Shown here: in pieces, positions 3,079 through 55,423 of the stretch
Numbering within the stretch: the first letter of the stretch is position 1
How the letters are laid out: the number at the start of each line of letters is the position of its first letter
DNA from: Candidatus Pelethousia gallinarum
GTDB taxonomy: Bacteria > Bacillota > Clostridia > Christensenellales > CAG-138
Reading direction: 5' to 3'
Assembly: GCA_018711995.1 (NCBI GenBank)
Contig: DVHO01000104.1
Location: 18,367 to 82,366 of the forward strand
DNA length: 64,000 nt
The notes under the pieces: generated by a model
The model's database searches: none
Told to the model about the DNA's origin: nothing
Seen by the model: the letters and a program-made list of their open reading frames with translations, nothing else
Made by a program: the position numbers and the translations under genes

Positions 3079-4260
3079 TTATATTCTCCCCCAGGCTTGT
3101 AAGCCTTGCAGGATGGAGGAAAACGCCTTTTCCACGTTTTCCCGGCTGGTGGCCAGGTTGATCCGGATGTGGCTTTGTCCATCCCCCTCGAACCAGGCGC
3201 CATAATCCACTGCAATGCCGCAGGTTTCCTCAAAGAAGCGTTCCATCTCCTCCGGCTGCAAATAGGCGGCGAAGTCCACCCACATCAGATAGGTCCCTTC
3301 CAAAGGGGTAACGCAGGCCTTTGGCAGGTGGATTGCCAGCTGCTCCCGTAGGTATCCATAATTGTTCCAGATGATCTCCTGCACCTGCTGCAACCACGCC
3401 TTGCCGCCTCGATAGGCTGCTTCCACCGCAATATACCCGAACGGATTCCCTTCCCGTATGTGGATCCGCTTGGTGAAGGCGTCGTATTCCTTCCGGAGCT
3501 TGGCGTCCGGCAGCACCACAAAGGCATTTTGGCAGCCTGCCAGATTAAATGTTTTGCTGGCGGCAGTCAAGGTGATCACCATGTGGCTGTAATCCCCCGC
3601 CGTAGCGCTGGGGATGTGCTTATGCCCGTCAAAGGTAAGATCCTGGTGTATCTCATCGGACAACACCAGCACGCCATGTTTCTTGCAGATATCCAGCATG
3701 GCGGTCAGTTCCTCCCTGCGCCAAACCCGGCTGACAGGGTTATGCGGGGAGGACATGATGAACATGCGCACCTGGTTCTCCGCGATCGCGGCTTCAAAGG
3801 CGGCAAGATCCACCGAATATTGCCCATCCTGGTGGACCAGCTGGCAGGCGACCAGCGTCCGTTCATTGTCCCGTACCGCATGAAGGAAGGGATAATAGAC
3901 AGGGGTCAATACCAGGACTCGGTCCTGGGGCTCGGTAAAGATCTGGATCAGCCAGTTGATGGCAGGCACCACCCCCGGGGAAAACCGCAGCCATTCCCGC
4001 TGCACCGAATAGCCATGACGTTCCTGTTCCCAATCCATAAAGGCTTGATAATAGCCTTCGCTGGGATGGTAGTACCCGAATACGCCGGTATCCAAATAGT
4101 CTTTTTCCGCCTCCAGCACGCACTGGGGCACGCGGAAATCCATATCCGCCACCCACAGGGCCAGCAGATCCTCTCTGCCAAAGCGTTCCCCCAAGCCGTC
4201 CCATTTTTCGCAATGGGTGCCCTTCCGATCCACATAGAGAATGGGTTCGTCCATGGTCAA
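3079..4260 (-). CDS. patB: PLP-dependent C-S lyase / aminotransferase class I-II (PatB/MalY type cystathionine beta-lyase)
   Basis: 393 aa. N-terminus DRKGTHCEKWD...LALWVADMDF and the PLP-lysine motif AASKTFNLAG are typical of MalY/PatB. The start lies 6 nt after the pheT stop. Confidence 0.8.
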   Translation of the reverse strand: MTMDEPILYVDRKGTHCEKWDGLGERFGREDLLALWVADMDFRVPQCVLEAEKDYLDTGVFGYYHPSEGYYQAFMDWEQERHGYSVQREWLRFSPGVVPAINWLIQIFTEPQDRVLVLTPVYYPFLHAVRDNERTLVACQLVHQDGQYSVDLAAFEAAIAENQVRMFIMSSPHNPVSRVWRREELTAMLDICKKHGVLVLSDEIHQDLTFDGHKHIPSATAGDYSHMVITLTAASKTFNLAGCQNAFVVLPDAKLRKEYDAFTKRIHIREGNPFGYIAVEAAYRGGKAWLQQVQEIIWNNYGYLREQLAIHLPKACVTPLEGTYLMWVDFAAYLQPEEMERFFEETCGIAVDYGAWFEGDGQSHIRINLATSRENVEKAFSSILQGLQAWGRI

Positions 4261-4266
4261 ACCTCC

Positions 4267-6669
4267 TTATCCCCGCAATTCCGCACCCAGGCGGGCGCGT
4301 AAGGCCTTGACCAACGCCTCCATGGCCCCGGAGATGTCCTCATCGGTCAGCGTCCGGTCCTCCGCCCGCAGGGTATAGGAATAGGCCATGCTCTTCTTGC
4401 CCTCGGGTATCCCTTTACCGCGATATACGTCGAACAGGGACACGTTCTCTAGGATCACCTTTACAGGCGCCTGTTCCATAACCTGCTGCACCTGGGCAGC
4501 GGTGACGGTTTCATCCACCACCACAGCGATATCCCGAGGCACCACCGGATATTTGGGCAGCGGCTGATAGGTGACCGCGCCAGGCAAGTTGGCGGTCAAG
4601 CCCTGGAAGGATAGCTCCGCCACATACACCTTCTGGGGAATGCCATAAGCCTTTTGGGTATCCGGATGGATGGCGCCCATTTCCCCGATGGGCTGGCCAT
4701 TGAGCAAAAGAATGGCTTTCTGGCCAGGCTGGAAATAGGGGCTGCCGCCAGGCTTTACGGAAAGGGCCCCTATAAGCCCAAGGCGCTCCACACAGGCTTC
4801 CACGCAGCCTTTGAGGGTGAAGAAGTCCTCTTCCTCCCCGGTAAAGGCAAAACCCAGCATCCTGCGTTCTTCTGGAAGATCCGCATTATTGTCCAGATGC
4901 ACGTTTCCCACTTCAAAGAAGCGGCCCTGACCGGTTTTCCGGTTGCAATTGAGGGCGATGGACCGAAGCATCCCCGGCACCAGGGTGGTGCGCATCAGGC
5001 TTTGATCCTCCCCAAAGGGATTGAGCAGCTTGACAGCCAGGCGTTTTTCGTCGTCCTCCGGCAGCCGAAGGGCGTTCAAGTCCGCCGGGCCTATGAAGTT
5101 GTAATTGTACATCTCATAGCAGCCCAACGCCACGCACAAATCCTTGATCCGATCCTCCCGGGCGCATTCCACGCTGGGCCGGCCCTGGAAGGTATCCCCC
5201 CGCATCAAGGTGGGCGGGATGTTGTCATAGCCGTAGATCCGGCCTACTTCCTCTGCGATGTCCCAATCGGTTTCGATGCTGCTCTCAATATCCACCCGGT
5301 AATGGGGGATGGTGACCACCAGCTTGTCTCCCGCTACCCGGCTGCCGATGTTGATGGTAGACAGCATCTTCGCCATTTCTTCCCCGGAGAAACGGGTATT
5401 CAGGATCCGGTTCACATGGGCGATATCCGCTTCCACCACCCGGTCCGCCGTATCCACGCTGCATACGTCGATGGCCTGGCCCACCACCTTGCCGGCTTTG
5501 AGCTCGTCCACCAGCTCAATGGCCCGCTGGGCCGCCAGCATGGCGTTCACCGGCTCCACGCCCTTGATGAACCGCGCCGCCGCATCCGTTACGTGGCGCA
5601 GCTCCCGGGTGGTCCTACGGATGCTGCTGCCCTTGAACACCGCCGCTTCAAACAATACGGCCTTGGTGTTCTCGGTGATCTCGCTGTTTTCGCCGCCCAT
5701 GACGCCGGCGATGCCCACGCCCTTGGTGGGGTCTGCGATCAGCAGCATATCCTCCGTGGTCTCCCGCTCCTTGCTGTCCAGGGTGACTACCTTCTCCCCA
5801 GGATAGGCCTTGCGCACTACGATATGCCCATCCGCCACGCATCGCAGGTCAAAGGCGTGCATGGGATGGCCGTATTCCACCATCACATAGTTGGTGATGT
5901 CCACGATGTTGTTGATGGGCCGAAGGCCCACGGCCCGCAGCTTTTTCTGCATCCAGGCGGGGCTGGGCTCGATCTTGATATCCGTTACCACCCGGGCCAC
6001 ATACCGGGGGCAAAGGTCTGGAGCCAGCACTTCCACGGAGGCATAGTCGCTGGCATTCCCCTCCCCCTGGATCTGGCGGATCACAGGCTCCTGGAATTTC
6101 TGTCCCAGGGCGGCCGCCGCCTCCCGACAAATGCCGATGATGCTGGCGCAATCCGCCCGGTTAGGGGTCAGCTCAATGTCGAACACCACATCGTCCATGC
6201 CCAGGGCTTCCTGGATCCGCTGGCCCAAGGGATGCTCGCCCTGCAAGATCAGGATGCCGTAGACCCCTGCCCCCGGATAGTCCTCCTCGGTGAGGCCCAA
6301 TTCCTGGCCGGAACACAGCATACCATCGCTATGCACCCCCCGCATCTTGGTGGGGTGGATCTCCAGCCCGCCCACCAGCTTGGCCCCATCCAGGGCCACC
6401 GGCACCAGGGCGCCTTCGAATACGTTCGTTGCCCCGGTGACCACAGTGAGCTTCTCCGGCTGCCCCACGTCGATGGAACAGATTTGCAGCTTATCCGCAT
6501 TGGGGTGTTTGGACAGGGCGTCGATGCGGCCCACCACCGTATGGGTGACCGGCATCTCCGGCTCCACGGCGGCGGTCTCAAATCCCCGCCACATCATCAA
6601 TTCCACAAAGCGGTCAACGCTCACGTTGAAATCCACGTATTCCTTGAGCCATTTAAGCGGCAATTTCAT
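4267..6669 (-). CDS. pheT: Phenylalanine--tRNA ligase beta subunit
   Basis: 800 aa. MKLPLKWLKEYVDF... N-terminus, tRNA-binding, B3/4 and B5 regions recognisable. Directly downstream of pheS. Confidence 0.95.
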   Translation of the reverse strand: MKLPLKWLKEYVDFNVSVDRFVELMMWRGFETAAVEPEMPVTHTVVGRIDALSKHPNADKLQICSIDVGQPEKLTVVTGATNVFEGALVPVALDGAKLVGGLEIHPTKMRGVHSDGMLCSGQELGLTEEDYPGAGVYGILILQGEHPLGQRIQEALGMDDVVFDIELTPNRADCASIIGICREAAAALGQKFQEPVIRQIQGEGNASDYASVEVLAPDLCPRYVARVVTDIKIEPSPAWMQKKLRAVGLRPINNIVDITNYVMVEYGHPMHAFDLRCVADGHIVVRKAYPGEKVVTLDSKERETTEDMLLIADPTKGVGIAGVMGGENSEITENTKAVLFEAAVFKGSSIRRTTRELRHVTDAAARFIKGVEPVNAMLAAQRAIELVDELKAGKVVGQAIDVCSVDTADRVVEADIAHVNRILNTRFSGEEMAKMLSTINIGSRVAGDKLVVTIPHYRVDIESSIETDWDIAEEVGRIYGYDNIPPTLMRGDTFQGRPSVECAREDRIKDLCVALGCYEMYNYNFIGPADLNALRLPEDDEKRLAVKLLNPFGEDQSLMRTTLVPGMLRSIALNCNRKTGQGRFFEVGNVHLDNNADLPEERRMLGFAFTGEEEDFFTLKGCVEACVERLGLIGALSVKPGGSPYFQPGQKAILLLNGQPIGEMGAIHPDTQKAYGIPQKVYVAELSFQGLTANLPGAVTYQPLPKYPVVPRDIAVVVDETVTAAQVQQVMEQAPVKVILENVSLFDVYRGKGIPEGKKSMAYSYTLRAEDRTLTDEDISGAMEALVKALRARLGAELRG

Positions 6670-6687
6670 GCTATTTCTCCCCCTTCC

Positions 6688-7710
6688 TTAGAACTGCCGG
6701 AGGAACCGGGCGTCGTTCTCATACTCCAGCCGGATATCCGTAATGCCGTGTTTCAGGTTGGTGATCCGGTCCACGCCTACGCCGAAGGCTACGCCCTTCC
6801 ATTCCTTGGGGTCCAGGCCGCAGTTTTCGATGATATGGGGGTTGGATACGCCGCAGCCCAGGATCTCCAACCAGCCGGTACCCTTGCAGGCCCGGCAGCC
6901 CTTGCCGCCGCACAGGGTGCAGCTGATATCCACCTCGGCGGAAGGCTCCGTAAAGGGGAAATAGCTTGGCCGGAACCGCATACGCACATCGTCTCCGAAT
7001 ACCGCATGGATAAAGGTGAGCAGAATGCCCTTCAGGTCCGCCAGGGTAATCTCCCGGTCCACCACAAAGCCTTCGATCTGCATGAACACAGGGCTGTGGC
7101 TGGCATCCACCTCGTCCACCCGGAACACCCTGCCCGGCATGATCAGCCGGAAGGGGGGCTTCACGTTCAGCAGCGCCCGGGCTTCGCAGGGGCTGGTATG
7201 GGTCCGCAGCACCACCCGGTCGTTTACGTAGAAGGTATCCTGCATATCCCGGGCAGGATGGTCCAAGGGCAGGTTCAGCTTGGTAAAGTTATAATCGTCA
7301 TACTCCACCTCGGGTCCCTCGTAAGTGGTGAACCCCATTCCCACCAATGCGTCCCGGATCTCCCGATAGGTTTGGGTCATGGGATGCAGCCTGCCCAGGG
7401 CCCGGCCAGGTTTTCCAGGCTCCGTCACGTCTAAGGCTTCCTTCTCGAACCGGAGGGCTTGCATCTTTTCCCCGATCACAGCCTTCCGCTTGGCCAATTC
7501 CGCCTCTAACTCCTTTTTGACCGTATTGGCGGCCTGTCCCAACTTTGCCCGCTCGTCCTTGCTCAACTGGCTCATGCCCCTCAAAATACCCGTCAAGGCG
7601 CCGTTGCGCCCCAGGATGGATACGTTGATCTCGTCCAGCTCCGCCCCATCCCTGGCTGCTTGCAGCCGGGCCAGGGTCTCCTGGCGGATCTTTTCCAATG
7701 CCTCTGTCAT
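6688..7710 (-). CDS. pheS: Phenylalanine--tRNA ligase alpha subunit
   Basis: The ORF is open from 7785. I place the start at Met26 (MTEALEKIRQETLARL...), because the upstream 25 codons overlap the T-box terminator. Class II aaRS motifs are present (FRVDEVDASHSPVFMQIEG, GFAFGVGVDR). Confidence 0.9.
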   Translation of the reverse strand: MTEALEKIRQETLARLQAARDGAELDEINVSILGRNGALTGILRGMSQLSKDERAKLGQAANTVKKELEAELAKRKAVIGEKMQALRFEKEALDVTEPGKPGRALGRLHPMTQTYREIRDALVGMGFTTYEGPEVEYDDYNFTKLNLPLDHPARDMQDTFYVNDRVVLRTHTSPCEARALLNVKPPFRLIMPGRVFRVDEVDASHSPVFMQIEGFVVDREITLADLKGILLTFIHAVFGDDVRMRFRPSYFPFTEPSAEVDISCTLCGGKGCRACKGTGWLEILGCGVSNPHIIENCGLDPKEWKGVAFGVGVDRITNLKHGITDIRLEYENDARFLRQF

Positions 7711-10057: not shown

Positions 10058-10561
10058 TTACTTATCTTTGCCGCAGCACTTTTTATATTTCTTCCCGCTG
10101 CCGCAAGGGCAGGGATCGTTGCGGTTGGGCTCCTGCTGCTTAACGTACATCTTGGAGGAGCGGAACTCCATGGTGATCTCCTTGCGGCGCTCCGGCGTAA
10201 GGATGGGCTCCCACTGGGGCAGGTTATAAAGCCAATCCGCCTTGCAATCCAGCATGTTGAAATACAGCTTTTCGTAATCGATATCCAGCTCGATCTTGCT
10301 GCCGCTCTTGAGGCTGTCCAGTTTCAGCTCCTTCTTCAGGCTGGTGTTGATGCCGTCCAAGAAGCCCAGGAAGGTGACCTCATCCATGTGGAACTCCTCT
10401 GCCAGCTCCGAAACCTTGCCGCTATAGGTATGCTGGTAATTCCCCAGGATGGTTTTATAGTTTTCCGTTTCCAGGGCAAAGTATTCCTTCCAGAACTTTT
10501 TGGCCTCCCCGGGGGTGCGTTCCACATCCGCGATGGCCTGCCATTCACTGTATAAACTCAT
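10058..10561 (-). CDS. SEC-C motif domain protein
   Basis: 167 aa ending in PCPCGSGKKYKKCCG (a SEC-C metal-binding motif). Confidence 0.75.
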   Translation of the reverse strand: MSLYSEWQAIADVERTPGEAKKFWKEYFALETENYKTILGNYQHTYSGKVSELAEEFHMDEVTFLGFLDGINTSLKKELKLDSLKSGSKIELDIDYEKLYFNMLDCKADWLYNLPQWEPILTPERRKEITMEFRSSKMYVKQQEPNRNDPCPCGSGKKYKKCCGKDK

Positions 10562-10640: not shown

Positions 10641-11852
10641 TCAGGCAGCCGCGTCAAGAAATTCTTTTACCTTGCGGATAAAATCTTCAGTGTTGAGCAC
10701 CGTGACGTTGTCCATATCTGCCAGGGCCGCAAGGTCCTTGGTCATAAACCCTGCGCTAATGGTATCCAAGGCAGCCTTTTCAAGCCGGTCGGCAAAATCC
10801 ATCAGCTCTGGGATCTGATCCAACTCGCCCCGCTTGCGAAGGGCGCCTGTCCAGGCAAAGAGGGTGGCCATAGAGTTCGTAGAGGTCTCCTCCCCTTTCA
10901 GGTGCCGATAATAATGCTTGGTCACCGTTCCGTGGGCGGCTTCGTATTCATAGTTGCCGTCCGGGGATACCAATACGCTGGTCATCATGGCCAGAGAACC
11001 AAAGGCCGTGGCCACCATATCGCTCATCACGTCGCCGTCGTAATTCTTGCAAGCCCAGATGAAGCCGCCGTTAGAACGGATGACCCGGGCCACCGCGTCG
11101 TCGATGAGGGTATAGAAGTAGGTAATGCCTGCCGCTTTGAACTGCGCCTCGTATTCTGCCTGGTAGATGTCTTCGAAAATATCCTTGAAGGTGTGATCGT
11201 ACTTTTTAGAGATGGTATCCTTAGCGGAGAACCACAGATCCTGCTTGGTGGACAGGGCGTAGTTAAAGCAGGCCCGGGCAAAGCTCTGGATGGAATCATC
11301 CTTATTATACATGCCCATCAGCACGCCGGGGGTCTTGAACTCAAACACGGTTTCGTGGAACAGCTCCTTGCCCGAAGCATCGGTAAAGAGGATCTCCGCT
11401 TTTCCGGGGCCAGGAACCCGGAACTCGCTGCAACGGTAAATGTCCCCATACGCATGACGCGCAATGGTAATGGGCTTGGTCCAGCTGCGCACAGAGGGCT
11501 TTAGGCAGGGCAGCATGATGGGCGCCCGGAATACGGTGCCATCCAGGATGGCACGAATGGTGCCGTTGGGGCTTTTGTACATGCGCTTGAGGTTATATTC
11601 TTCCACCCGCTGGGCGTTGGGGGTGATGGTGGCGCATTTTACGCCTACCCCGTACTTCTTCACGGCTTCCGCCGCTTGTACGGTGATCTGGTCGTCGGTG
11701 GCGTCCCGGGAAGGAAGCCCCAGATCGTAATATTCGGTCTTTAGATCCACATACGGCTCCAGCAAATGCGTTTTGATCATTTGCCAGATGATGCGGGTCA
11801 TTTCATCGCCGTCCATCTCAACAAGGGGGGTCCTCATTTGAATTTTACGCAT
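10641..11852 (-). CDS. icd: NADP-dependent isocitrate dehydrogenase (homodimeric, IDH1-like type)
   Basis: IQMRTPLVEMDGDEMTRIIW...GVGVKCATITPN...ARHAYGD are typical of the eukaryote-like NADP-IDH family. The ORF is open from 11858, but AAGGAG abuts that ATG, so the ATG at 11852 (6 nt spacing) is the likelier start. Confidence 0.85.
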   Translation of the reverse strand: MRKIQMRTPLVEMDGDEMTRIIWQMIKTHLLEPYVDLKTEYYDLGLPSRDATDDQITVQAAEAVKKYGVGVKCATITPNAQRVEEYNLKRMYKSPNGTIRAILDGTVFRAPIMLPCLKPSVRSWTKPITIARHAYGDIYRCSEFRVPGPGKAEILFTDASGKELFHETVFEFKTPGVLMGMYNKDDSIQSFARACFNYALSTKQDLWFSAKDTISKKYDHTFKDIFEDIYQAEYEAQFKAAGITYFYTLIDDAVARVIRSNGGFIWACKNYDGDVMSDMVATAFGSLAMMTSVLVSPDGNYEYEAAHGTVTKHYYRHLKGEETSTNSMATLFAWTGALRKRGELDQIPELMDFADRLEKAALDTISAGFMTKDLAALADMDNVTVLNTEDFIRKVKEFLDAAA

Positions 11853-11862
11853 GGGCATCTCC

Positions 11863-13026
11863 TTATTTTTTTGTTATTTTTGCGCCGGATATGGCCTTAT
11901 TCAGGATATCCGAGCGAAATGCAAAACTAGACGCTTGCTTTTCCTCCAGCCCCTGCTGGGCGTACGCTACCAATTTATCTACCAACGCAGCAAACGAGAT
12001 CCCCATGGGTTCGTATAGATAAAATGCGAAGGAACCCGGGATGGTATTGATTTCATTAATGTAAACCTGTTCCCCTTCCAGGATATAGTCCACCCGCACC
12101 ACGCCTTTGCACTCCAGCATACGGAAAACTTCCACCGTATAGTCCTGGATTTGTTTGGTCAGCTCTGGAGAAATGGGGGCGGGGATCTGGCGGCTCAGGC
12201 TCTTCATGCCCTTGCCGTCCCCACGGATATATTTCTCCTCAAAGGTGAGGAAGGTATCCCAGCAAGCGGGCTGCTCGCAAAGGGAAGGCAGGGCCTCCTG
12301 GCTATTGCCCAGGCAGGCGCAGTTGATCTCCACCGGGTGCTCCACCGCCCGTTCGATGAGGATCCGGCGGTCAAAGCTGGCAGCCACCTCCATTGCCTGG
12401 CGGAATCCGTCCGGGTTCACAGCCTTGCCGATGCCGATGGAGCTACCCAGGTTAGCGGGCTTGATGAACATGGGATAACCGATTTCCCCTTCGGCCTTTG
12501 CTAGCACCGCCTGAGGGTCCTGCTGCCATTCCGCCCGGTTGCAGTATACCGCAGGCAGCACCGGTAGGCCCATGCTCTTGAACACGGCCTTCATCACGAT
12601 CTTATCCATGCCCACGGCGCTGCCCACCAGGCCGCAGCTGGAATAGGGGATATCCGCCAGCTCCATCAAGCCCTGCACCGTGCCGTCCTCCCCATGCATT
12701 CCATGGAGGGCCAGAATGGCGCAATCCAGCCCGCATACCCGCTGGGTCTTGCCGAAAAGCCCGCTGCCAAAGCTATACAGGGCGTTGTGGCCGGGCTCAG
12801 GCGGCAAAAACACCCGGGTCAAGCCCTTTTGCTGGGGATCGAAATCCCGGTAGGTCTTTACGTCCCGCAAAGGCTCCCCCACATACCAGGCCCCCGACCG
12901 GGCAATATAAATGGGGAAGGCATGGTATTTTCCTTTGTCTGCATTTTCCAATATCTGTAACCCGCTGATTATGGATACGTCATGCTCGGAAGCCCGGCTT
13001 CCGAAGATCACCCCTAATTCCATCAT
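11863..13026 (-). CDS. ddl: D-alanine--D-alanine ligase family protein (long form, 387 aa)
   Basis: GVIFGSRASEHDVS, HGMHGEDGTVQG, GYPMFIKPANLGSSIGI and YINEINTIPG are ATP-grasp Ddl motifs. An insertion around EEKYIRGDGKGMKSLSRQ makes it longer than E. coli or B. subtilis Ddl. Confidence 0.85.
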   Translation of the reverse strand: MMELGVIFGSRASEHDVSIISGLQILENADKGKYHAFPIYIARSGAWYVGEPLRDVKTYRDFDPQQKGLTRVFLPPEPGHNALYSFGSGLFGKTQRVCGLDCAILALHGMHGEDGTVQGLMELADIPYSSCGLVGSAVGMDKIVMKAVFKSMGLPVLPAVYCNRAEWQQDPQAVLAKAEGEIGYPMFIKPANLGSSIGIGKAVNPDGFRQAMEVAASFDRRILIERAVEHPVEINCACLGNSQEALPSLCEQPACWDTFLTFEEKYIRGDGKGMKSLSRQIPAPISPELTKQIQDYTVEVFRMLECKGVVRVDYILEGEQVYINEINTIPGSFAFYLYEPMGISFAALVDKLVAYAQQGLEEKQASSFAFRSDILNKAISGAKITKK

Positions 13027-13051: not shown

Positions 13052-14722
13052 TCAATTATAATTATCCGTTAAGTCGTTTTCAAACAGTACCGTACACCCT
13101 GGCTGTTGATACAGCGGCAGCTTTTCCGTGGCCTGGGCCAGGGATTCCACCTCCACCAGCCGGTCCTCTGGGAAGCCGCCTTCCAGGAGCCCCGCCTTGA
13201 TGGCCGGGGCGTTGGGTCCCACCAGGATAGCCACGTCCACGCAAGACGCCATGTGCAAGCCAAAGGCCTGGTTCAAGGCCGCCTGCTCCTCCCCCAGTTC
13301 CACCATACCGGGGGTAATGATGATCCGTCGGCCTGGGAAGGACTTCAGTACCTCCAGCGCTTCGCTGGAGCCCACCGGGTTGGCGTTAAAGGCATCGTCT
13401 ATCACGGTAATGGGGCCGGGCAAGAGCTGCAAGCGATGCTCCACCGGCTCCAGCTTGCCGATGCCGGCGGCGATCTGTGCTTCGCTTAAGCCCAGCTTAT
13501 AGGCTAGGGCGGCGGCTCCCGCCACGTTCAGGATGTTGTGCCAGCCCAGGAGCCGGGTGACGCAGGGGATCCGGGTCCCATCCTGGCAAACCAGGGTGAA
13601 CCGGCTGCCCTCCGGGCCTACGGTGATATCCTCCGCCCGCATATACAAGCCTTCTCCCTGGGTGCCAAAAAGGTATTTTTCCTGTAATGGGCTGTTCTCA
13701 TAAAGCTGGCGGCACAGGGGATCGTCCCCGTTGAGAAAGACGCAGCCCTGGCTGCCGACCCCGGCCAACAGTTCCCCTTTGGCGCGCATTACGTTTTCCA
13801 GGGAGCCGAAGGTTTCCAAATGTTGCTTGCCAATGGCGGTAAGGATGCCGTACTGCGGTCTGACCAGACGGCACAGCTGGGCCACATCCCCCTTATAACG
13901 CGCCCCCATCTCCCCGATAAACACTTGGTGTTCCGGCGTGAGTTTTTCTCGTATGGTTCGGGTCACTCCCATGGGGGTGTTGAAGCTGCCAGGAGTATAG
14001 AGGGTCTTATATTTTTCCCCCAGGATGGTGCCCAAAGCGTACTTGGTAGAGGTCTTTCCAAAGCTGCCGGTGATGCCGATGCGGATTAGCGCCGGATTGG
14101 CAAGCAGGCGTTTCCTGGCGTCCCCCATATACCAGCCCTGGACCAGCTTTTCCACCGGCCAGGTGAGCACATGGGCCAGGCATACCACAAGGGGCAGCAG
14201 CAGCCCGGGCAAAAACCGCACAAGCTCTGGCCAGAAGCCATAGTCCCACCAGCCGCCCCAAGGCTGTATGCCATTAAAAAGGAGCCGCACATAGGACGCC
14301 TGCAACAGCAGCCGCGCCACCGGCCCCACCAGGGCGAGCAGGAATACGGGAACCAATAGCCGCTTGACCCTAGCGGTATAGCGCAGGGGTTTTTTGGCCT
14401 TTTTTTGATTTTTTAGGGCCATGATCCCAAAGGCTAGCATCATGCCGGTAAAGATCACGTCCCCGCCCCGCCATAGCAGGGTCCCAAAGCCGCCCGGGAA
14501 AAATTGGCCGGCTATGCGCAAAAGGAAGCCCGCCACACCGGCCAAAAAGGGGCCGGACCATTGGCCCAGGTGCTTACGCACCCACTTAAGATACATGGGA
14601 CCCTGGTAGCTTTCCAGCTGCAACATATGAAGGAAGGGAATGGCTGCCAGGGTAACTGCCACCCCGTCCAGCAGCACATATGCCCAAAAGGCGATTTGGA
14701 TCAGGAGTTCATTGGTTTCCAT
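13052..14722 (-). CDS. Mur ligase family protein (MurF-like central and C-terminal domains) fused to an N-terminal polytopic membrane domain
   Basis: 556 aa. Residues ~1-190 are mostly hydrophobic, with 5-6 predicted TM segments. The P-loop GITGSFGKTSTK is at residues 216-227, followed by MurF-like motifs (FIGEMGARYKGD, DDAFNANP, IITPGMVELG). Confidence 0.8.
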   Translation of the reverse strand: METNELLIQIAFWAYVLLDGVAVTLAAIPFLHMLQLESYQGPMYLKWVRKHLGQWSGPFLAGVAGFLLRIAGQFFPGGFGTLLWRGGDVIFTGMMLAFGIMALKNQKKAKKPLRYTARVKRLLVPVFLLALVGPVARLLLQASYVRLLFNGIQPWGGWWDYGFWPELVRFLPGLLLPLVVCLAHVLTWPVEKLVQGWYMGDARKRLLANPALIRIGITGSFGKTSTKYALGTILGEKYKTLYTPGSFNTPMGVTRTIREKLTPEHQVFIGEMGARYKGDVAQLCRLVRPQYGILTAIGKQHLETFGSLENVMRAKGELLAGVGSQGCVFLNGDDPLCRQLYENSPLQEKYLFGTQGEGLYMRAEDITVGPEGSRFTLVCQDGTRIPCVTRLLGWHNILNVAGAAALAYKLGLSEAQIAAGIGKLEPVEHRLQLLPGPITVIDDAFNANPVGSSEALEVLKSFPGRRIIITPGMVELGEEQAALNQAFGLHMASCVDVAILVGPNAPAIKAGLLEGGFPEDRLVEVESLAQATEKLPLYQQPGCTVLFENDLTDNYN

Positions 14723-14725
14723 ACA

Positions 14726-15490
14726 TCAAGCCTCATTTTGATACAGGATCTGCAGGATGGAACAGAAACGAGGATAGTCCTCCGCATAGGAGAAATGTCC
14801 TACGCCAGGAATAATGGCAAGGCCGGCGTTCTGCATTTCCCGCTCCATTTTCTTCCCCATCCACAGGGGGGTAGCCGTATCTTTTTCCCCCCAGATCAAA
14901 AGGGTTTCATTGGGGATCTTGGAAAGCAGGGATGTCTGATCATAATTGACGGTTTTCACATAGGTGACCCGCATATCCCCCTGCAATTGCTGATATTCTG
15001 TGGAGCCGGCCTTTTTCTGCCGCTCCTGCAAGCGGAAGAGCCGGTTCAAAGCCGGGGACTTGGCCAGGATCTTCCCCAGCTTATAGGTATAGACCCGCCA
15101 ATAATATTTGGGGCCTCGCCTTGGTTTAATGCCGGCCGCGTCCACCAGGATCAGCCGGTGAAATAGTTCCGGCGTTTCGCTGGCCAGCTGAATGGTCACC
15201 CGCCCCCCAAAGGAATGGGCCACCACATCGCACCCGCCAATGCCGATGGCTTCCATAAAGGCCCGGGTGCAAGCGGCATACTCCGGCACCCCCCAAGGTC
15301 CCGGCGGTTCCGGGCTTTCCCCAAAGCCGGGAAAGTCCAGGCTGACCGCTTCCCTGCCCAGCCTGACCAAGCAGTTGGCAATGGGCGCCATGGCCTGAAT
15401 ATTCGCGCCCCAGCCATGGAGCAGCAGCACCGGCTTACCTGAGCCCTGGCGCTGATAATGCAGTTGGGCGCCGTTTATCTCAATCGTCAA
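14726..15490 (-). CDS. Alpha/beta-fold hydrolase
   Basis: 254 aa. HGWG oxyanion region, nucleophile elbow AHSFGG, C-terminal GVGHF. There are 3-nt gaps to both neighbouring genes. Confidence 0.75.
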   Translation of the reverse strand: MTIEINGAQLHYQRQGSGKPVLLLHGWGANIQAMAPIANCLVRLGREAVSLDFPGFGESPEPPGPWGVPEYAACTRAFMEAIGIGGCDVVAHSFGGRVTIQLASETPELFHRLILVDAAGIKPRRGPKYYWRVYTYKLGKILAKSPALNRLFRLQERQKKAGSTEYQQLQGDMRVTYVKTVNYDQTSLLSKIPNETLLIWGEKDTATPLWMGKKMEREMQNAGLAIIPGVGHFSYAEDYPRFCSILQILYQNEA

Positions 15491-15493
15491 TGG

Positions 15494-16759
15494 CTACCTC
15501 TTATCGTCTTTCTTAGGCGCCTGCCAGCCGTCTTTATTTACCTGCCTGGCCCGGGCGATGCCTAGTTGCCCTTCCGGAATATCCGTGGTAATGGTAGATC
15601 CAGCGGCGGTATAGGCATGATCCCCCAGGGTGACCGGCGCCACCAGGGAGGTATTGCAGCCCAGGAATACATCGTTCCCGATCACCGTGCGGAATTTCCG
15701 GGCCCCGTCATAATTGGCAAAAGCCGTGCCGCAACCCACGTTGATCCGCTTGCCGATATCCGCGTCCCCCACATAGGTGAGATGGGCCACCTTGCCACCA
15801 TCTCCCAAAGTGGAGTTTTTGATCTCTACAAAATTGCCCACCTTGCAGCCCTTGCCAAGGTGCGCGTTGGGGCGCAGCCGCACATAGGGCCCGATGCTGG
15901 TGCCGTCCTCCACCGCCGCCTCCTGGGCCACCACGGCCGCCAGGGAACAGCCGTCCCCCACGATGGTATCCAAAAGCCGGCAACCATTATATAAGGTACA
16001 ATCCCGGCCGATCCGGGTATCGCCTTGTAGAAATACCCCGGGATAGATCACCGTATCTTCCCCGATGGTCACCTCTGCGTCGATATAGGCCTGATTGGGG
16101 TCCAGGAAGGTGACGCCGTTTTTCATATGGCGGGTATTGATGGCCTGCTGCCTTAGGTAGGTACAATCCCAAAGGCTCTCCCGGTCATATACCGCAGCGC
16201 ACTCCACTGCGGGAGCATATATATCCACCACCCGCTCCCCTTCCATACGCAAGGCGCGAATAAAATGCTTGGCCTCCACGTCGTGGGGCAGGTCCCGCTC
16301 CAAAAAGCGGCGCAAGTGGTTAATCTCAAAACAGAAGGCTGCGCAGGGCCTTGTCTCTTCGTCTTCTTCGCAATAGACCAGGCGGGATGCCGCTACCCCC
16401 TGGGCCGCGTCGGTCAACATGCGGATGGTCTCTGGCTGCAGCATCGGCAGGTTGCCATGCACCACCAACACATAGCCTTCCGGTTGGGTGATCAGGGGCA
16501 TGGCAAACAAAATGCCCTCTGCCATGGAATCCGCGTGTTCTTGGGTGACATAGCGGGCTTTTTCCCCGATATGGGCGCGCACCCGGTCTCCGTCAAACCC
16601 AACAGATACAATGGGTTTCTCCTGAATATGCTCTTCGCAGGCCGCAAGGACCCATTTTACCATACTCCTGCCGCAGATCTCATGGAGGACCTTTTGCTTC
16701 CTGGAATGCATCCGCTTTCCTTCGCCTGCTGCAAGAATGATTGCCGTGATCGCTTTCAT
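15494..16759 (-). CDS. GlmU-like protein: intact left-handed beta-helix acetyltransferase domain, divergent nucleotidyltransferase-like N-domain
   Basis: 421 aa. The N-terminus keeps LAAGEGKRM. The C-terminal half matches GlmU closely (NFVEIKNSTLG..KVAHLTYVGDADIG..NYDG..IARARQVNK). The central uridyltransferase signatures are not conserved; see the finding. Confidence 0.7.
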   Translation of the reverse strand: MKAITAIILAAGEGKRMHSRKQKVLHEICGRSMVKWVLAACEEHIQEKPIVSVGFDGDRVRAHIGEKARYVTQEHADSMAEGILFAMPLITQPEGYVLVVHGNLPMLQPETIRMLTDAAQGVAASRLVYCEEDEETRPCAAFCFEINHLRRFLERDLPHDVEAKHFIRALRMEGERVVDIYAPAVECAAVYDRESLWDCTYLRQQAINTRHMKNGVTFLDPNQAYIDAEVTIGEDTVIYPGVFLQGDTRIGRDCTLYNGCRLLDTIVGDGCSLAAVVAQEAAVEDGTSIGPYVRLRPNAHLGKGCKVGNFVEIKNSTLGDGGKVAHLTYVGDADIGKRINVGCGTAFANYDGARKFRTVIGNDVFLGCNTSLVAPVTLGDHAYTAAGSTITTDIPEGQLGIARARQVNKDGWQAPKKDDKR

Positions 16760-16886
16760 GCTTATCCCTCAAAATTCTTTGCACATATAAAAGGTCATAA
16801 CCGCTGCTATTATTTTATGAGCGGACAACGGGCTCTGTCAAGAGAAGGGGGGCTTGCATACAAGTATATTTGATCCGCATCCCTCC

Positions 16887-18889: not shown

Positions 18890-19432
18890 TTAAATAAAGC
18901 CGCCCTTTTTCAGCAACTTGACGGTCCCAAACACCGCCGCCGTATATACGGGGATCATAATGGCTTGGTTAAGCAGCCGCACATACACGATTTGATAAGG
19001 CAGGCCGTACAACGCCATCAGCAATAGCGTATTACACAGCACAGAGCAAAATATTTGTCCTGCGGCGATGGATAAAAGCAAGCGTTTCCAGGTGACTGCC
19101 TGGCCTCTTTGGAAAAATAAGCCGGGGATCACCCCAAACAGCGCCCCGATCAAGGTAAACCAAGGGATCCAAGGTCCCTTGGGGAATAGCAGGGCGGGCA
19201 ACAGATCCACCACCATACCCACAATGCCCCCATAGGCTGGGCCATATAGCACAGCAGCCAGGATCACTGGCAGCACGGTTATGCCGATCTTTAAGGAATA
19301 CCCGGCTGCGGAGACCGCAGGCAACGGAATGGACAGGATTCCCAGCACCGTGCCCAACGCCGCCAAAAGGGCGCATATGGTCAGCTGCCGGGTCAATGGA
19401 TGTACGTTGGCTTGTTTTACATTTTGTTCCAT
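18890..19432 (-). CDS. folT: ECF transporter S component, folate family (FolT-like)
   Basis: 180 aa, about 5-6 TM segments, and a THF riboswitch directly upstream. Confidence 0.7.
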   Translation of the reverse strand: MEQNVKQANVHPLTRQLTICALLAALGTVLGILSIPLPAVSAAGYSLKIGITVLPVILAAVLYGPAYGGIVGMVVDLLPALLFPKGPWIPWFTLIGALFGVIPGLFFQRGQAVTWKRLLLSIAAGQIFCSVLCNTLLLMALYGLPYQIVYVRLLNQAIMIPVYTAAVFGTVKLLKKGGFI

Positions 19433-19503
19433 AAAAATAACCTCCTCTTTGCAGTCCTACTACAGTACATGAGGAGGCTTGACACCAGGGCCATCCTTAT
19501 GTA

Positions 19504-19621
19504 GCAGCGGGATGCGGATACCGCACCGCAAGCCGATGGCCGGCTATTCGTCCGCCCGGCAACTCCCCGTCCAGGCGGCACTCGTCATGAGCCCCATGAC
19601 ACGCGCAATATCCTACTCTGC
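19504..19621 (-). ncRNA. THF (tetrahydrofolate) riboswitch aptamer
   Basis: Minus RNA reads GCAGAGUAGGAUAUUGCGCGU...GGACGGGGAGUUGCC...GGACGAAUAG...GCGGUGCGGUAUCCGCAUCCCGCUGC. This matches the remembered THF-I signature AGAGUAG..GCGU..GGGA.GU..ACGAA..GCGGUG..GCAUCCGCU with P1 GCAG/CUGC. Downstream, CCUCCUC can pair with the folT SD GAGGAGG. Confidence 0.75.
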
Positions 19622-19666
19622 TTTTGCGGATTCATTCTATACCAAATCCAGCTCCATGTAAAGCCC

Positions 19667-21625
19667 CTATGCGCCGCTTTGCTCCGGCGTCTGCTGAAAA
19701 TCGATCCAATAGGTCGCCCGCACCTTTTCCCCCATGGTCTCCTCGTCCAGATAGGTATAATATAGCCGGTTGGCCCAGCTGGAAGCAGCGATCCGGGTAC
19801 TGGCCAGGTCGCATACCGGCTGGCTTTCCCCGCTTTCCAGCTGATAGGCCCACAGGGTATAGGGATAGGGGTCCTGAGGCTGGGGCGTTTGGGTGGCAGC
19901 CGCTTCCTCTCCGGCTTCCCCTGCGCTGCCGGAGAGCCGGTTTTCAAAATAATACAGAATGGACCCGTCCTGGCTCCAGACAAAGTCATATACGGCGAAA
20001 TCGTCGGTGATGGTTTGGGTTTGCCCGGTCTGCATATCCCGCAGCAGGAATTCGCCCCCCGCGCCTCCCGCAATGCTGGAAGCGCCGCTAATGGCCATGT
20101 AGGCGTTATTGGGGGAAAGGGCAAATGCGCCGCCTTGGCAAAAGGCTTTGCGCACGCCCCCTTCGGGCTTGATTTCGTAGATGGTATCCCCTTCCATTTC
20201 GCTTTGCACGAAGTATACCTCGCCGCCACAATAGCCGATATAGCCTTCGTTGGCCCCATTTTTATCCACCACCGTATGGCGCTTGGTTTCATCCGGCACG
20301 TTAAAGTCATAAGCATGGACCTGCATTTCCCCGCTGCCGCTCACCGCGAACAACATGCTGCCCATACTATCCCAACATAGGGCGCTCACCGTGTCCCCGA
20401 ACCCTGTCCGCGTCAGCTCGGTAATGATATCGCGGGTACCTACGTCCACCACATACAGGTTGGTGCGCTCCGCCTCCCGCTCTAATACGGCCAGTTTTCT
20501 TCCATCCGGTGAAAAGACAGCCCGCTCTACTGTGGCAAAGGCATAGTCCAGCAATCGTTTTTCCTTATCCTGGCTGTCCAGGATATACAGTTCTTCATAG
20601 CTGATGGCGTCTACACCAATGCCCTCTATGATCCGTTTGGAATACAAGATCCCGCCTCCCAGCCTACGGGGCACAGAGGAAAGGAAAATCCCGTCCGCCA
20701 GGCAAACCTGGGCGCCTGCCACCTGGCCGTTTCGGCGCTGCACCGCTTCTACAAAAGCGGCTTGTTGCCTGGCCGTTTCATCAAAGGCAGGCAAGCCGTC
20801 CGCCCCCAGCTGCACCGCCATCCAATCGCTTTCCAAGGCGCTGGGGTTTTGCTCCAAAATCTGCCGTTTTGCCAATTCCGCCTCAATATCCGAAGCATAT
20901 GCCTGGGAGATAAGCACCACCTGATCCAAACTGGAGGTATACGTGGGGGTCATTTGCTCCGCGCCCAATAGGGTACCTTCGCAATAATCCCGGAACCCAT
21001 TGCCGATCAAATACCAGGGCGCCTCTTCCGCCTCTTGTTCCGGCTGGGCTTCCTGGACCACAGGCAAAAGGGTAACGCTCAACTGTCCCCCCTGCTCCTG
21101 GATCTGAAAGGCAGCGTCCTGCGCCAACTGGAAACATAGATAGACCGATTCCATAGGCTGGGGCTCCTCTTCCGCCGCTTCCGCAGCTTCCCCATCCAAG
21201 GGCGCATCGGTCTGTAAAGGAAGGGGATTGGCCAGCGCATAGCGGAAATAGCCTAAAACCAAACCGGATTTTTCCCAATCCCGGCGCTCAAAATCCCAAT
21301 AGCTCAACCCGTCAAACTGAAGCATCAGCCTGGCAGGGGCGGTTTCTATCCAGGCGCGATACTGGGGCACGCCCTGGGCTTCGCTTTCGTTTACCGTACC
21401 GCTCATGCGGCTGCCGGTTTTAAAGGTGAAGGTCAACTTCGTAGTTTCCCCGCTGGGGGTTACGGCCAGGGCATAGGCATTGGCCTCTGCGACGGCCTCC
21501 CCTCCTTCCAATGGGGTGTCCGCAAGGGTATATCCCTGGTATCGGTTGGTCTCCACCTCCTTTTGGCAGGCGCATAAAAGCACCAAGCAAAGAAGCGGCG
21601 CCAGCATTCTCCAGGCTCGTTTCAT
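19667..21625 (-). CDS. Lipoprotein with C-terminal WD40-like (TolB/PD40-type) beta-propeller
   Basis: 652 aa. Signal/lipobox-like N-terminus MKRAWRMLAPLLCLVLLCAC. C-terminal repeats of the FSPDGRKLA / SQDGSILYY type. Confidence 0.6.
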   Translation of the reverse strand: MKRAWRMLAPLLCLVLLCACQKEVETNRYQGYTLADTPLEGGEAVAEANAYALAVTPSGETTKLTFTFKTGSRMSGTVNESEAQGVPQYRAWIETAPARLMLQFDGLSYWDFERRDWEKSGLVLGYFRYALANPLPLQTDAPLDGEAAEAAEEEPQPMESVYLCFQLAQDAAFQIQEQGGQLSVTLLPVVQEAQPEQEAEEAPWYLIGNGFRDYCEGTLLGAEQMTPTYTSSLDQVVLISQAYASDIEAELAKRQILEQNPSALESDWMAVQLGADGLPAFDETARQQAAFVEAVQRRNGQVAGAQVCLADGIFLSSVPRRLGGGILYSKRIIEGIGVDAISYEELYILDSQDKEKRLLDYAFATVERAVFSPDGRKLAVLEREAERTNLYVVDVGTRDIITELTRTGFGDTVSALCWDSMGSMLFAVSGSGEMQVHAYDFNVPDETKRHTVVDKNGANEGYIGYCGGEVYFVQSEMEGDTIYEIKPEGGVRKAFCQGGAFALSPNNAYMAISGASSIAGGAGGEFLLRDMQTGQTQTITDDFAVYDFVWSQDGSILYYFENRLSGSAGEAGEEAAATQTPQPQDPYPYTLWAYQLESGESQPVCDLASTRIAASSWANRLYYTYLDEETMGEKVRATYWIDFQQTPEQSGA

Positions 21626-29263: not shown

Positions 29264-29731
29264 ATGCTTTGCGATTCATGCAAACAAAACGAAGCGGTGA
29301 TCCACCGCATCGTTGTCATAAATGGTAAAAAATCCGAGCTGCATCTGTGCGCCCAGTGCGCCAAGTCTTCCGGCGGTTTGACCTTTAAGCTGCCCACCTT
29401 CGCGGAATTGATGGACATTGCCGCCACGGAGCCGGCGGATCAGGATGAACCTGCCTGCGCCTGCGGTATGACCCTGTCCAAATTCCGGGAAACCGGGCTG
29501 TTGGGTTGTCCACAATGCTATCAGACCTTTCGCACCGCTTTAGCCCCCATTATTGAGGGCAGCCAGGGCGGACGCAGCCAACACATGGGCACCCGGCCAG
29601 CCTATGATGCGCCTGCCCAAAGCGAACTGGATAAGCTCCGGGAAGCTTTACGGGCGGCCATTGAAACCGAGGATTACGAACAGGCTGCCCAGCTGCGGGA
29701 TCAGATTCGGGATATGGAGGCGAAAGCATGA
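29264..29731 (+). CDS. mcsA: McsA (UvrB/UvrC-motif, zinc-finger activator of McsB)
   Basis: I place the start at MLCDSCKQNEAVIH (AAGGAGGGG SD), not at 29153. There are CxxC pairs and a C-terminal UVR motif (YEQAAQLRDQIRDME). Confidence 0.8.
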   Translation: MLCDSCKQNEAVIHRIVVINGKKSELHLCAQCAKSSGGLTFKLPTFAELMDIAATEPADQDEPACACGMTLSKFRETGLLGCPQCYQTFRTALAPIIEGSQGGRSQHMGTRPAYDAPAQSELDKLREALRAAIETEDYEQAAQLRDQIRDMEAKA

Positions 29732-30714
29732 CCAGCATCCCTCTTACGCATATTATCCTTAGTTGCCGGGTCCGCCTGGCCCGAAATTTCAAAGATCGTC
29801 CCTTTGTCAACAGCCAAAGCGACGAACAGGCCAATGCTGTTTTAGAGCAGGTTCGTCCTCTATTCCCGGTGGAGGAGGGGTATACCTTTTTGCCCATGGC
29901 GGAGCTTGCCCCCCTGGAGCGGGCCTCCCTGGTGGAAAACCACCTTTGTAGCACCGACCTGATCGCCTCCGCCCACGGCGCCCTGATCCTCAATGGAGCC
30001 CATACCTTGGCTGTGATGCTCAATGAGGAAGACCATCTGCGCATCCAAGGCATCCTGCCGGGGCTGGATCTGCCGGGCGCCTATGCTCTGTGCAGGCAAG
30101 CGGAGGAAACCATCGCCGCCTCTCTCCCCTATGCCTTTGACACCCAATACGGCTACCTTACCGCCTGTCCCACCAACCTGGGCACCGGTATGCGGGCTTC
30201 TGCCATGATCCATCTGGCGGGCCTGGCCTTGACCGGCCAGGCGGAACCCCTCCTTTCCCGGATCGGAAAGTTAGGAGTGGCGGTCCGGGGCTTTTACGGG
30301 GAAGGCAGCAGCGCCCCAGGGTATATTTACCAGATCTCCAACCAACATTCCCTGGGAATGCAGGAGCGGGAGCTCATGGAAGCCCTGACGGCGGTGATCA
30401 GTCAGCTGGCTGTCCAGGAAGCCCGGGCCAGGGCCTTGCTGCTAAATAAGCGGCCCTTGGAATTGGAAGACATGGTGGGTAGAGCCCTGGGCATTTGCCG
30501 ATACGCCCGCAAGATGGATCTTGCGGAGGCCATGCAGGAGCTTTCCGCCATCAAGCTGGGGGTCAGCCTGGGCCTGCTGCCCCTGCCCATGGAGGAGATC
30601 GATGGGCTGATCGTGGCGTGTCAAGGGGCCCAGCTTTCCTCCGTCCCCTTATCCGAGGATGAGGAATGCGCCGCCCGGGCGGATCGGCTCCGGGAGACCC
30701 TAAAAAACCTATAA
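29728..30714 (+). CDS. mcsB: Protein arginine kinase McsB (ATP:guanido phosphotransferase)
   Basis: 328 aa. SCRVRLARN, NEEDHLRIQ and CPTNLGTGMRAS are phosphagen-kinase motifs. ATGA overlap with mcsA. Confidence 0.85.
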   Translation: MTSIPLTHIILSCRVRLARNFKDRPFVNSQSDEQANAVLEQVRPLFPVEEGYTFLPMAELAPLERASLVENHLCSTDLIASAHGALILNGAHTLAVMLNEEDHLRIQGILPGLDLPGAYALCRQAEETIAASLPYAFDTQYGYLTACPTNLGTGMRASAMIHLAGLALTGQAEPLLSRIGKLGVAVRGFYGEGSSAPGYIYQISNQHSLGMQERELMEALTAVISQLAVQEARARALLLNKRPLELEDMVGRALGICRYARKMDLAEAMQELSAIKLGVSLGLLPLPMEEIDGLIVACQGAQLSSVPLSEDEECAARADRLRETLKNL

Positions 30715-30750
30715 AATAAATCAACCGACCATCAAATAGGAGTAAACCAT

Positions 30751-55125: not shown

Positions 55126-55154
55126 GGCGTCCTCGCCTCCTACCCTTTTTTTGG

Positions 55155-55183
55155 TAGTATGGCTCCTGCGCCCATATCTATGC
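55155..55183 (-). promoter_or_regulatory. Forespore sigma-G/F-type promoter candidate for the ger operon
   Basis: Minus strand reads GCATA-17 nt-CATACTA, compared with the sigma-G consensus GHATR-N17/18-CATNNTA. It lies ~30 nt upstream of the gerAA-type ATG. Confidence 0.45.
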
Positions 55184-55363
55184 GTGCTGGCCGACCTATC
55201 CTGATCCAGGGCGATATCGCTGACGATCCCCCCTAGCCAACTGCCGGCAGGGGGGATCGAAAATGGGAAGCTCAACCTATTTAATTTGATGGGGACCGCC
55301 ACTGGAAAACGCTGCGGCTGCCCAACCTGGCCTTTTGCGAAAAGTTTCGAGACGCGTCGCCAT

Positions 55364-55398: not shown

Positions 55399-55423
55399 AA
55401 ACAGATCTCCGCAACCGGGGTCC

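Follow-up and report, generated by a model that had tools for sequence, protein, structure and literature searches.

A MurF-type ligase with a membrane domain in place of domain 1, encoded beside an alpha/beta hydrolase and Ddl in Candidatus Pelethousia gallinarum and other bacteria

We analyzed a 64-kb stretch of Candidatus Pelethousia gallinarum DNA (contig DVHO01000104.1, positions 18,367 to 82,366; hereafter, the window) and identified a 556-amino acid (aa) ligase in which the uridine diphosphate (UDP)-binding domain 1 of MurF is absent and a helical membrane domain stands in its place. The combined evidence makes it probable that this protein belongs to a membrane-anchored type of MurF, often the housekeeping one, which would attach D-Ala-D-Ala beside MraY on the inner side of the membrane, with a conserved cytoplasmic platform replacing domain 1 and an alpha/beta hydrolase as a partner. 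MurF is an essential enzyme, soluble according to the textbooks, and a long-standing antibiotic target; to our knowledge, all MurF structures and inhibitors derive from the canonical three-domain form.

A MurF-type catalytic core without domain 1

The ligase is encoded in one frame with an ATG start and no internal stops, and a GAGG sequence is located about 10 nucleotides (nt) 5' of the ATG. The following features were assigned in the gene, in window coordinates:

13052..14722, minus strand: membrane-anchored MurF-type ligase, 556 aa, the whole open reading frame (ORF); assigned using Pfam, NCBIfam and AlphaFold2
14042..14077, minus strand: ATP-binding P-loop GITGSFGKTSTK, residues 216-227, with T218, G219, S220, G222, K223 and T224 invariant
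13502..14074, minus strand: Mur ligase central domain, residues 217-407; Pfam PF08245 (Mur_ligase_M), E 1.4e-38
13082..13438, minus strand: Mur ligase C-terminal domain, residues 429-547, with the DDAFNANP and PGMVELG motifs; PF02875 (Mur_ligase_C), E 8e-12, and invariant columns
13058..13081, minus strand: subfamily-specific C-terminal tail ENDLTDNY

The catalytic core, comprising the central and C-terminal Mur ligase domains, is specifically MurF-like. All leading matches in the PDB, by sequence as well as by fold, are to MurF, the best being E. coli MurF by sequence (1gg4, E 1e-41, aligned from its residue 103) and Acinetobacter baumannii MurF by fold (4qf5, E 8e-26, root-mean-square deviation 2.4 A over ~360 columns). 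The NCBIfam murF model TIGR01143 scores 229.7 bits, below its cut-off of 288.6, because domain 1 is missing: the alignment begins only at position 73 of the 418 in the profile. Relatives of the anchored ligase likewise fall under this cut-off (210-273 bits), in contrast to the 388 bits obtained for a canonical MurF encoded on one of the metagenomic loci that we compared (L081). The models of other Mur ligase families, namely, MurC, MurD, MurE, Mpl, MurT and cyanophycin synthetase, reach at most 68 bits. The P-loop, whose columns are invariant across 58 homologues, lies exactly where a first-pass annotation made from the sequence alone had placed it. The C-terminal tail, of the ENDLxDxY type, is found in 145 of 159 members of the anchored family, and the sole canonical MurF compared, that of L081, ends otherwise.

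The UDP-binding domain 1 is absent and is replaced by a helical domain, and residues 1-210 gave no match to Pfam or NCBIfam. The first-pass description of a MurF-like ligase with its N-terminal domain replaced by a polytopic membrane domain is thus borne out by the Pfam assignments, by the start of the TIGR01143 alignment and by the structural model described below. No second Mur ligase was detected in the window when the ligase part and the N-terminal domain were compared with its six-frame fragments using phmmer, which recovered only the gene itself, and the window contains no division and cell wall (dcw) cluster.

The membrane domain bears conserved cytoplasmic motifs

The N-terminal region was delineated using hydropathy, an AlphaFold2 model and an alignment of homologues:

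14102..14722, minus strand: N-terminal membrane domain, residues 1-207, with five transmembrane (TM) helices and two short cytoplasmic helices, replacing MurF domain 1 (hydropathy, AlphaFold2)
14582..14629, minus strand: motif 1, HMLQLESYQGPMYLKW, residues 32-47, on the predicted cytoplasmic face after TM1; H32, Q35 and Y39 invariant across phyla
14360..14395, minus strand: motif 2, KKPLRYTARVKR, residues 110-121, in the basic cytoplasmic loop before TM4; K111, L113, T116, R118 and R121 invariant across phyla
14117..14158, minus strand: motif 3, PVEKLVQGWYMGDA, residues 189-202, in the helix that leaves the membrane into the ligase core; P189, E191 and A202 invariant

Hydropathy and the positive-inside rule predict an N-out/C-in topology, with nine Lys/Arg residues in the loop 104-122. 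The AlphaFold2 model of the full-length protein, built with 58 homologues, has a mean predicted local distance difference test score (pLDDT) of 90.8 and a predicted template modelling score (pTM) of 0.83; the N-terminal domain modelled by itself reaches a pLDDT of 92.4. In the full-length model, membrane-length helices span residues 3-26, 52-74, 77-108, 117-149 and 158-207, and short helices span residues 28-36 and 41-50. The five to six hydrophobic segments noticed in the first pass hence do form a polytopic domain, although the count in the model is five TM helices rather than up to six. Only five residues separate the end of the last membrane helix (AlphaFold2 helix 176-207, which carries motif 3) from the first strand of the ligase core, and, given the pTM of 0.83, the membrane part and the ligase part are predicted to form one rigid body, with the ligase in the cytoplasm, against the membrane. 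No significant match to the fold of the N-terminal domain was found in the PDB (best E 0.45).

The consensus forms of the three motifs, HxxQLxxY, KKPLxxTxRxxR and PxE...A, all lie on the predicted cytoplasmic side. Across the 58 homologues, the mean frequency of the most common residue is 0.67-0.76 in the cytoplasmic segments, close to the 0.73 of the ligase core, compared to 0.34-0.56 in the membrane helices and the outer loop; the segment 27-51, which includes motif 1, reaches 0.76, compared to 0.37 for TM1. Given that the cytoplasmic motifs are conserved like the core and the membrane helices less so, the membrane domain is more than an anchor, and in the model it offers a conserved cytoplasmic surface at the site where domain 1 would attach. 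Furthermore, short forms of the family, 494-511 aa in length, have a membrane domain of ~150 aa with three helices, without the TM2-TM3 hairpin, and still retain all three cytoplasmic motifs (loci L063, L061, L081 and L080; proteins P0220 and P0264).

A widespread and apparently ancient subtype

The fusion of the membrane domain with the MurF-type core is common. A 99%-identical protein represents 312 database sequences, and more than 100 full-length homologues with 48-74% identity share the same architecture. A profile of the N-terminal domain, searched against 1.84 billion cluster representatives, gave 1379 matches, 523 of them at E <=1e-10, always at the N-terminus. Among the best 150 of the 1379, those that are apparently full-length comprise ~500-580 aa, enough to accommodate the ligase, and the shorter ones look like fragments from short contigs or contig ends; no stand-alone N-terminal domain protein was seen among the matches listed. 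We then collected 160 loci from reference genomes and metagenomes, each with up to 10 kb on either side of the gene, and a hidden Markov model of the N-terminal domain matched the ligase ORF in 159 of them.

The phylogenetic mapping called for by the first-pass annotation places the fusion in Clostridia, Bacilli, spirochaetes, Bacteroidales-like contigs, Rhodothermales and a Nitrospirota-labelled metagenome-assembled genome (MAG). The labelled sources are chiefly Clostridia (Christensenellales, Oscillospiraceae, Lachnospiraceae, Ruminococcus and Peptococcaceae) and further include Alicyclobacillus cellulosilyticus, Lactimicrobium massiliense, Treponema, Rhodothermales and MAGs labelled as Nitrospirota, Scalindua and gammaproteobacterial; the MAG labels may be imperfect, but the breadth across phyla is clear. 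The complete genome of Treponema primitia ZAS-2 contains the ligase gene together with those of the hydrolase and Ddl. Some database members of the family are labelled Muribaculaceae or Bacteroides.

In the ligase part, anchored forms from different phyla share ~45% identity, compared to 35% between the anchored and the canonical MurF of L081. Because the latter value is lower than the cross-phylum identity within the anchored family, the anchored form appears to be an old, separate lineage of MurF, and these comparisons indicate that it is a widespread, ancient subtype.

A near-obligate hydrolase partner

The neighbours of the ligase gene in the window include the following:

14726..15490, minus strand: partner alpha/beta-fold hydrolase, 254 aa, with Ser93 (in HSFGG), Asp204 and His232; Pfam Abhydrolase_1
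11863..13026, minus strand: D-alanine--D-alanine ligase (Ddl), 387 aa; NF002528 293.9 bits, cut-off 262, and TIGR01205 266.1, cut-off 245.65
15494..16759, minus strand: GlmU, 421 aa, probably the first gene of the operon; TIGR01173 376.2, cut-off 366.85
16812..16841, minus strand: promoter-like site TTGACA-18-TAAAAT upstream of glmU, matching 11 of 12 consensus positions

The spacings reported in the first pass are exact: the ligase gene lies 3 nt after the hydrolase gene and 25 nt before ddl, and the hydrolase gene lies 3 nt after glmU. We probably deal here with a glmU-hydrolase-murF-ddl operon. Promoter-like sites are no more common in this region than expected from shuffled sequences, so that the site upstream of glmU is weak evidence.

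Across the loci, neighbours were counted using our own ORF calling and profile labelling, and loci with enough flanking sequence were considered testable. The hydrolase is immediately upstream of the anchored ligase in 129 of the 136 testable loci, which makes it a near-obligate partner, and Ddl is immediately downstream in 109 of 136, so that the link to ddl proposed in the first pass is real and conserved; both neighbours are present together in 95 of 119 loci. GlmU occupies position -2 in only about 8 of 66 loci, that is, in close relatives. Neither the near-obligate pairing with the hydrolase nor the restriction of GlmU to close relatives, nor the TM helices reported for Helicobacter pylori MurF (see below), had been part of the first-pass annotation.

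The catalytic triad Ser93, Asp204 and His232 is invariant in 72 orthologues of the hydrolase. For all 72, the best NCBIfam family is the EstV lipase of H. pylori (best E 2.6e-48), with scores well below the equivalog cut-off. No close characterized relative of the hydrolase was found in the PDB, where the best matches (best E 6e-14) are to a generic esterase or meta-cleavage-product hydrolase.

Several further observations were made in these neighbourhoods. The GlmU in the window is short, yields two separate model matches and fails the NF010934 model (415 compared to a cut-off of 450), and its nucleotidyltransferase half may be divergent. The annotated neighbours in the window comprise a CDF transporter, GlmU, the hydrolase, Ddl and isocitrate dehydrogenase. 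The isocitrate dehydrogenase gene (10641-11858, minus strand) begins 4 nt after ddl and is followed by a gene for a 167-aa protein (10058-10561, minus strand) with a Cys-rich tail ending in ...CPCGSGKKYKKCCG; the two genes keep their places downstream of ddl in 10 of 66 and 7 of 66 loci, respectively. In loci L161 and L162 (9207-11599), the hydrolase and the anchored ligase are encoded without an adjoining ddl, among Bacteroidales-type neighbours (DUF3332, DUF1599 and an agmatine deiminase-like protein). In locus L061 (4303-13165), from the Scalindua-labelled MAG, the surroundings include a short Ddl-like gene (336 aa), a protein with a VanX-like dipeptidase motif (266 aa) and, after the hydrolase-ligase pair, a second, long Ddl; this setting may be a cell-wall remodelling or resistance context.

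The anchored form can be the only MurF in dcw clusters

The anchored ligase occupies genomic positions typical of murF. In the window it adjoins ddl. Among the relatives, four dcw clusters belonging to two lineages have the trio of hydrolase, anchored ligase and ddl between murE and mraY and contain no canonical murF at that site. The first lineage is represented by L063, from the Nitrospirota-labelled MAG, where the gene order is rsmH-ftsI-murE-[hydrolase-anchored ligase-ddl]-mraY-dac-murD-ftsW and no canonical murF is present in the cluster. The second includes L107, L116 and L102, with the order murE-trio-mraY, as well as L113, with the order ligase-ddl-mraY-murD; within this lineage, the anchored ligases share 67-84% identity, and their identity with that of L063 is 46-49%. 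The anchored form thus stands alone in the dcw cluster of two lineages at least. The first-pass annotation had considered that the fusion might be the sole MurF of its genome and carry an idle N-terminal domain; the former part agrees in part with these four clusters, and the latter is at odds with the core-like conservation of the domain. Two Peptococcaceae loci, L077 and L059, were examined as candidate dcw-embedded cases and ruled out, given that their neighbours encode a Mg-chelatase-like ATPase, DprA and topoisomerase I.

Proposed role and alternative explanations

Under the explanation that we favour, the adjacent Ddl would make D-Ala-D-Ala, and the anchored ligase would add it to the N-acetylmuramic acid (MurNAc)-tripeptide precursor at the inner membrane face, beside MraY. 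The conserved cytoplasmic platform would stand in for domain 1 and hold the substrate by its sugar-diphosphate end. In the organism from which the window comes, the anchored ligase would be the housekeeping MurF, expressed from the glmU-hydrolase-murF-ddl operon, and the hydrolase would be its functional partner, perhaps as a subunit, perhaps as an enzyme of editing or processing. We infer the substrate, the channelling to MraY, the roles of the motifs and that of the hydrolase from the composition, conservation and context described above. The first-pass suggestion of a membrane-tethered D-Ala-D-Ala-adding ligase, acting on a membrane-proximal substrate or regulated by the membrane domain, is supported in part, by the predicted position of the ligase in the cytoplasm against the membrane; the substrate may or may not be lipid-linked, and the membrane domain may or may not be regulatory.

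Several points weigh against this explanation. In the metagenomic dcw cluster L081, the gene order is ftsI-murE-canonical murF-hydrolase-anchored ligase. Its canonical murF (3314-4648) encodes 444 aa, with a TIGR01143 score above the cut-off, and is followed, after a 620-nt gap, by the hydrolase and the anchored murF (5269-7534). The two forms can therefore coexist, and the anchored one could have a separate job. The anchored ligase of L081 is 80% identical to that of its close relative L063, which has only the anchored form in its cluster. A canonical murF elsewhere in the genome is possible both for the organism of the window and for the genomes with a dcw-embedded trio. Where the motifs lie with respect to the active site is deduced from chain connectivity only, and no measured enzyme activity was found in the literature for any member of the anchored family. 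Finally, the missing domain is the very one responsible for UDP binding, and this loss fits also a substrate that is not UDP-linked.

The latter consideration leads to an alternative that we regard as unlikely, albeit worth spelling out, namely, that the anchored ligase acts on undecaprenyl-diphospho-MurNAc-tripeptide, a lipid-linked acceptor (lipid I or lipid II carrying a tripeptide stem). The membrane domain would then replace the UDP binder since the handle of MurNAc would be undecaprenyl diphosphate, the KKPLxxTxRxxR loop would bind the diphosphate, and the enzyme would finish or mend peptide stems at the membrane, be it as the principal pathway or, beside canonical MurF, as a salvage pathway. 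The precise loss of domain 1 and the conserved Lys/Arg-rich residues at the predicted membrane-cytoplasm interface are compatible with such a reaction, and the presence of a canonical MurF beside the anchored form in L081 would be expected if the substrates of the two enzymes differ. There are also precedents: MurT, a Mur-ligase-like subunit that amidates lipid II, lacks the N-terminal domain as well, and Fem transferases act on lipid II. However, no canonical murF is found between murE and mraY in the four dcw clusters of two lineages, so that, in those organisms, MraY would routinely have to transfer the tripeptide precursor, and MraY prefers the pentapeptide precursor. Moreover, the MurT model NF045635 gives only 18 bits compared to its cut-off of 800, and the module includes no protein resembling lipid-handling ones apart from the hydrolase.

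A less probable alternative is that the anchored ligase is an accessory MurF paralogue, which would incorporate D-Ala-D-Ser or D-Ala-D-Lac, as glycopeptide-resistance clusters do, or serve wall synthesis under stress or during sporulation, while a canonical MurF encoded elsewhere in the genome would take care of the routine function. Some van-type clusters are known to include MurF paralogues, and in a single locus, L061, two-component genes, a second, short Ddl-like gene and a gene for a VanX-like-motif protein directly precede the hydrolase-ligase pair. The coexistence with a canonical murF on L081 and the origin of the window from a spore former (see below) can be read in the same direction. 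Nevertheless, the partner ligases in the window and in L063 pass the D-Ala-D-Ala ligase cut-offs and stay far below those of VanA, B, C, D, E, G and L, the best Van-type score of the window Ddl being 219.8 for VanG compared to a cut-off of 495. None of the six ORFs annotated near the ligase gene in the window is VanH-like or VanX-like, and a Van-type resistance cluster in the window was rejected on the basis of the Ddl model scores and the neighbouring genes. The location between murE and mraY, in clusters that have no canonical murF at that position, favours a routine function instead, and the module is also present in non-sporulating spirochaetes and in Bacteroidales-like contigs.

That the hydrophobic region is an artefact, an upstream membrane-protein gene fused to the ligase through a frameshift, an assembly error or a wrong start, as the first-pass annotation had cautioned, could be suspected because the first ATG yields the long form and the murF model matches only from residue 211, but this possibility is negligible and was refuted by the unbroken frame preceded by GAGG ~10 nt before its ATG, by the five-residue junction in a confident AlphaFold2 model and by the recurrence of the fusion in 159 of 160 independent loci and hundreds of cluster representatives.

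Relation to known systems

Canonical MurF (E. coli 1GG4, A. baumannii 4QF5; EC 6.3.2.10) shares with the anchored ligase the central and C-terminal domains, the P-loop and the HLExFGS, DDxxNANP and GxMxELG motifs, and is likewise encoded adjoining ddl or between murE and mraY. It differs in having a UDP-binding domain 1 of ~80-100 aa where the anchored forms have a membrane domain of 150-207 aa; the ENDLxDxY tail, the near-obligate pairing with the hydrolase and the murF score below the cut-off further set the anchored form apart.

The closest parallels come from Campylobacterota. The passages on MurF in the H. pylori literature describe an essential inner-membrane protein with four N-terminal transmembrane domains (PMC9448923, citing Blair et al. 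2018; PMC9507126), which is part of the Csd5-CcmA cell-shape complex (PMC9507126) and is encoded by a 1485-bp gene, corresponding to ~494 aa (PMC6501431). H. pylori MurF (HP0740) is thus of the same size as the short anchored forms found here, and differs in the reported number of TM helices, four compared to five in the ligase of the window and three in the short forms. In Campylobacter jejuni, ddl (Cj0798c), an alpha/beta hydrolase gene (Cj0796c) and murF (Cj0795c) lie together, and Cj0796c could not be deleted and is probably essential (PMC5530802); the order there is ddl-hydrolase-murF, in contrast to hydrolase-murF-ddl in the anchored module.

EstV, the best family match of all 72 partner hydrolases, is presumably HP0739, which adjoins murF HP0740. 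Together with the reports on H. pylori and C. jejuni, this match renders the epsilonproteobacterial enzymes likely members of the same module; the comparison is with their published descriptions rather than their sequences, which is another point to be set against our explanation. A profile search with the short-form N-terminal domain returned only fragments of up to 272 aa, with no Campylobacterota names among the matches listed, and a full-length profile of five sequences, including short and long forms, retrieved no Helicobacter or Campylobacter among its best 120 matches, which include Treponema, Spirochaetaceae, a gammaproteobacterial MAG and MAGs labelled Muribaculaceae or Bacteroides.

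MurT, which together with GatD forms the lipid II isoglutamine synthase, also has a Mur ligase fold without the N-terminal UDP-binding domain and a role in a membrane step. Unlike the anchored ligase, whose core is of the MurF type, MurT is soluble, has a DUF1727 C-terminal domain and has a glutaminase partner; no DUF1727 was detected in the anchored ligase in the Pfam scan. Natural Mur fusions have been surveyed and include MurE-MurF, MurC-Ddl and MurD-FtsW; the MurE-MurF chimera has a remodelled MurF start, which lacks the usual "cap" and in which MurE covers a hydrophobic patch (PMC10214165). These fusions join enzymes of the pathway, whereas the anchored MurF carries a membrane domain without a recognizable relative in place of domain 1; the survey (PMC10214165) lists no form with a membrane domain, and the word "transmembrane" is absent from its text.

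The anchored form is already labelled "MurF" in the databases, and the anchor was remarked on in H. pylori, where the passages concerned treat it as a feature of one species within a cell-shape complex, not as that of a family or a replacement of domain 1. Apart from this remark, no description of a membrane MurF family, of its motifs, of the loss of domain 1 or of the pairing with the hydrolase was found in the literature. What is new here is that the subtype is widespread, that its cytoplasmic motifs are conserved and that a hydrolase is its near-obligate partner; we found neither the motifs nor the partner described.

Implications

Our results point to a second, ancient form of MurF in dominant gut Clostridia, in Bacteroidales-like contigs and in spirochaetes, and probably also in H. 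pylori and C. jejuni. They raise the questions of how the substrate end is held without domain 1, whether the product is channelled to MraY and what reaction the hydrolase catalyzes. They also bear on models of the membrane organization of precursor synthesis and on the H. pylori cell-shape complex that contains MurF, as well as on whether inhibitors directed at domain 1 or the UDP pocket of MurF can work in organisms with the anchored form. More speculatively, and in our estimate rather doubtfully, the anchored ligase and the hydrolase could constitute an unrecognized membrane-bound machine for the last "cytoplasmic" precursor step, in the strongest version with a lipid-linked acceptor. If so, the peptidoglycan pathway would gain a new and possibly essential enzyme, the hydrolase, and, with a lipid-linked acceptor, the textbook order of MurF followed by MraY would change in Clostridia, spirochaetes and Bacteroidales, and probably in Helicobacter and Campylobacter.

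Other features of the window

Elsewhere in the window, we identified a McsB-like kinase and ClpC (29728-33174, plus strand), a GerA/GerB/GerC-type germinant receptor operon (51049-55653, minus strand) and a 998-aa class A penicillin-binding protein (56570-59566, minus strand), which together indicate that the window comes from a spore-forming Firmicute. A tetrahydrofolate (THF) riboswitch (19503-19622, minus strand; Rfam RF01831, 72.8 bits compared to a gathering score of 36) lies just upstream of an ORF for a 180-aa polytopic membrane protein (18890-19432, minus strand), which may be a folate transporter component. A 652-aa protein encoded at 19667-21625 (minus strand) has a lipoprotein-like N-terminus (...LLCLVLLCAC), and a faint beta-propeller match was its only one.

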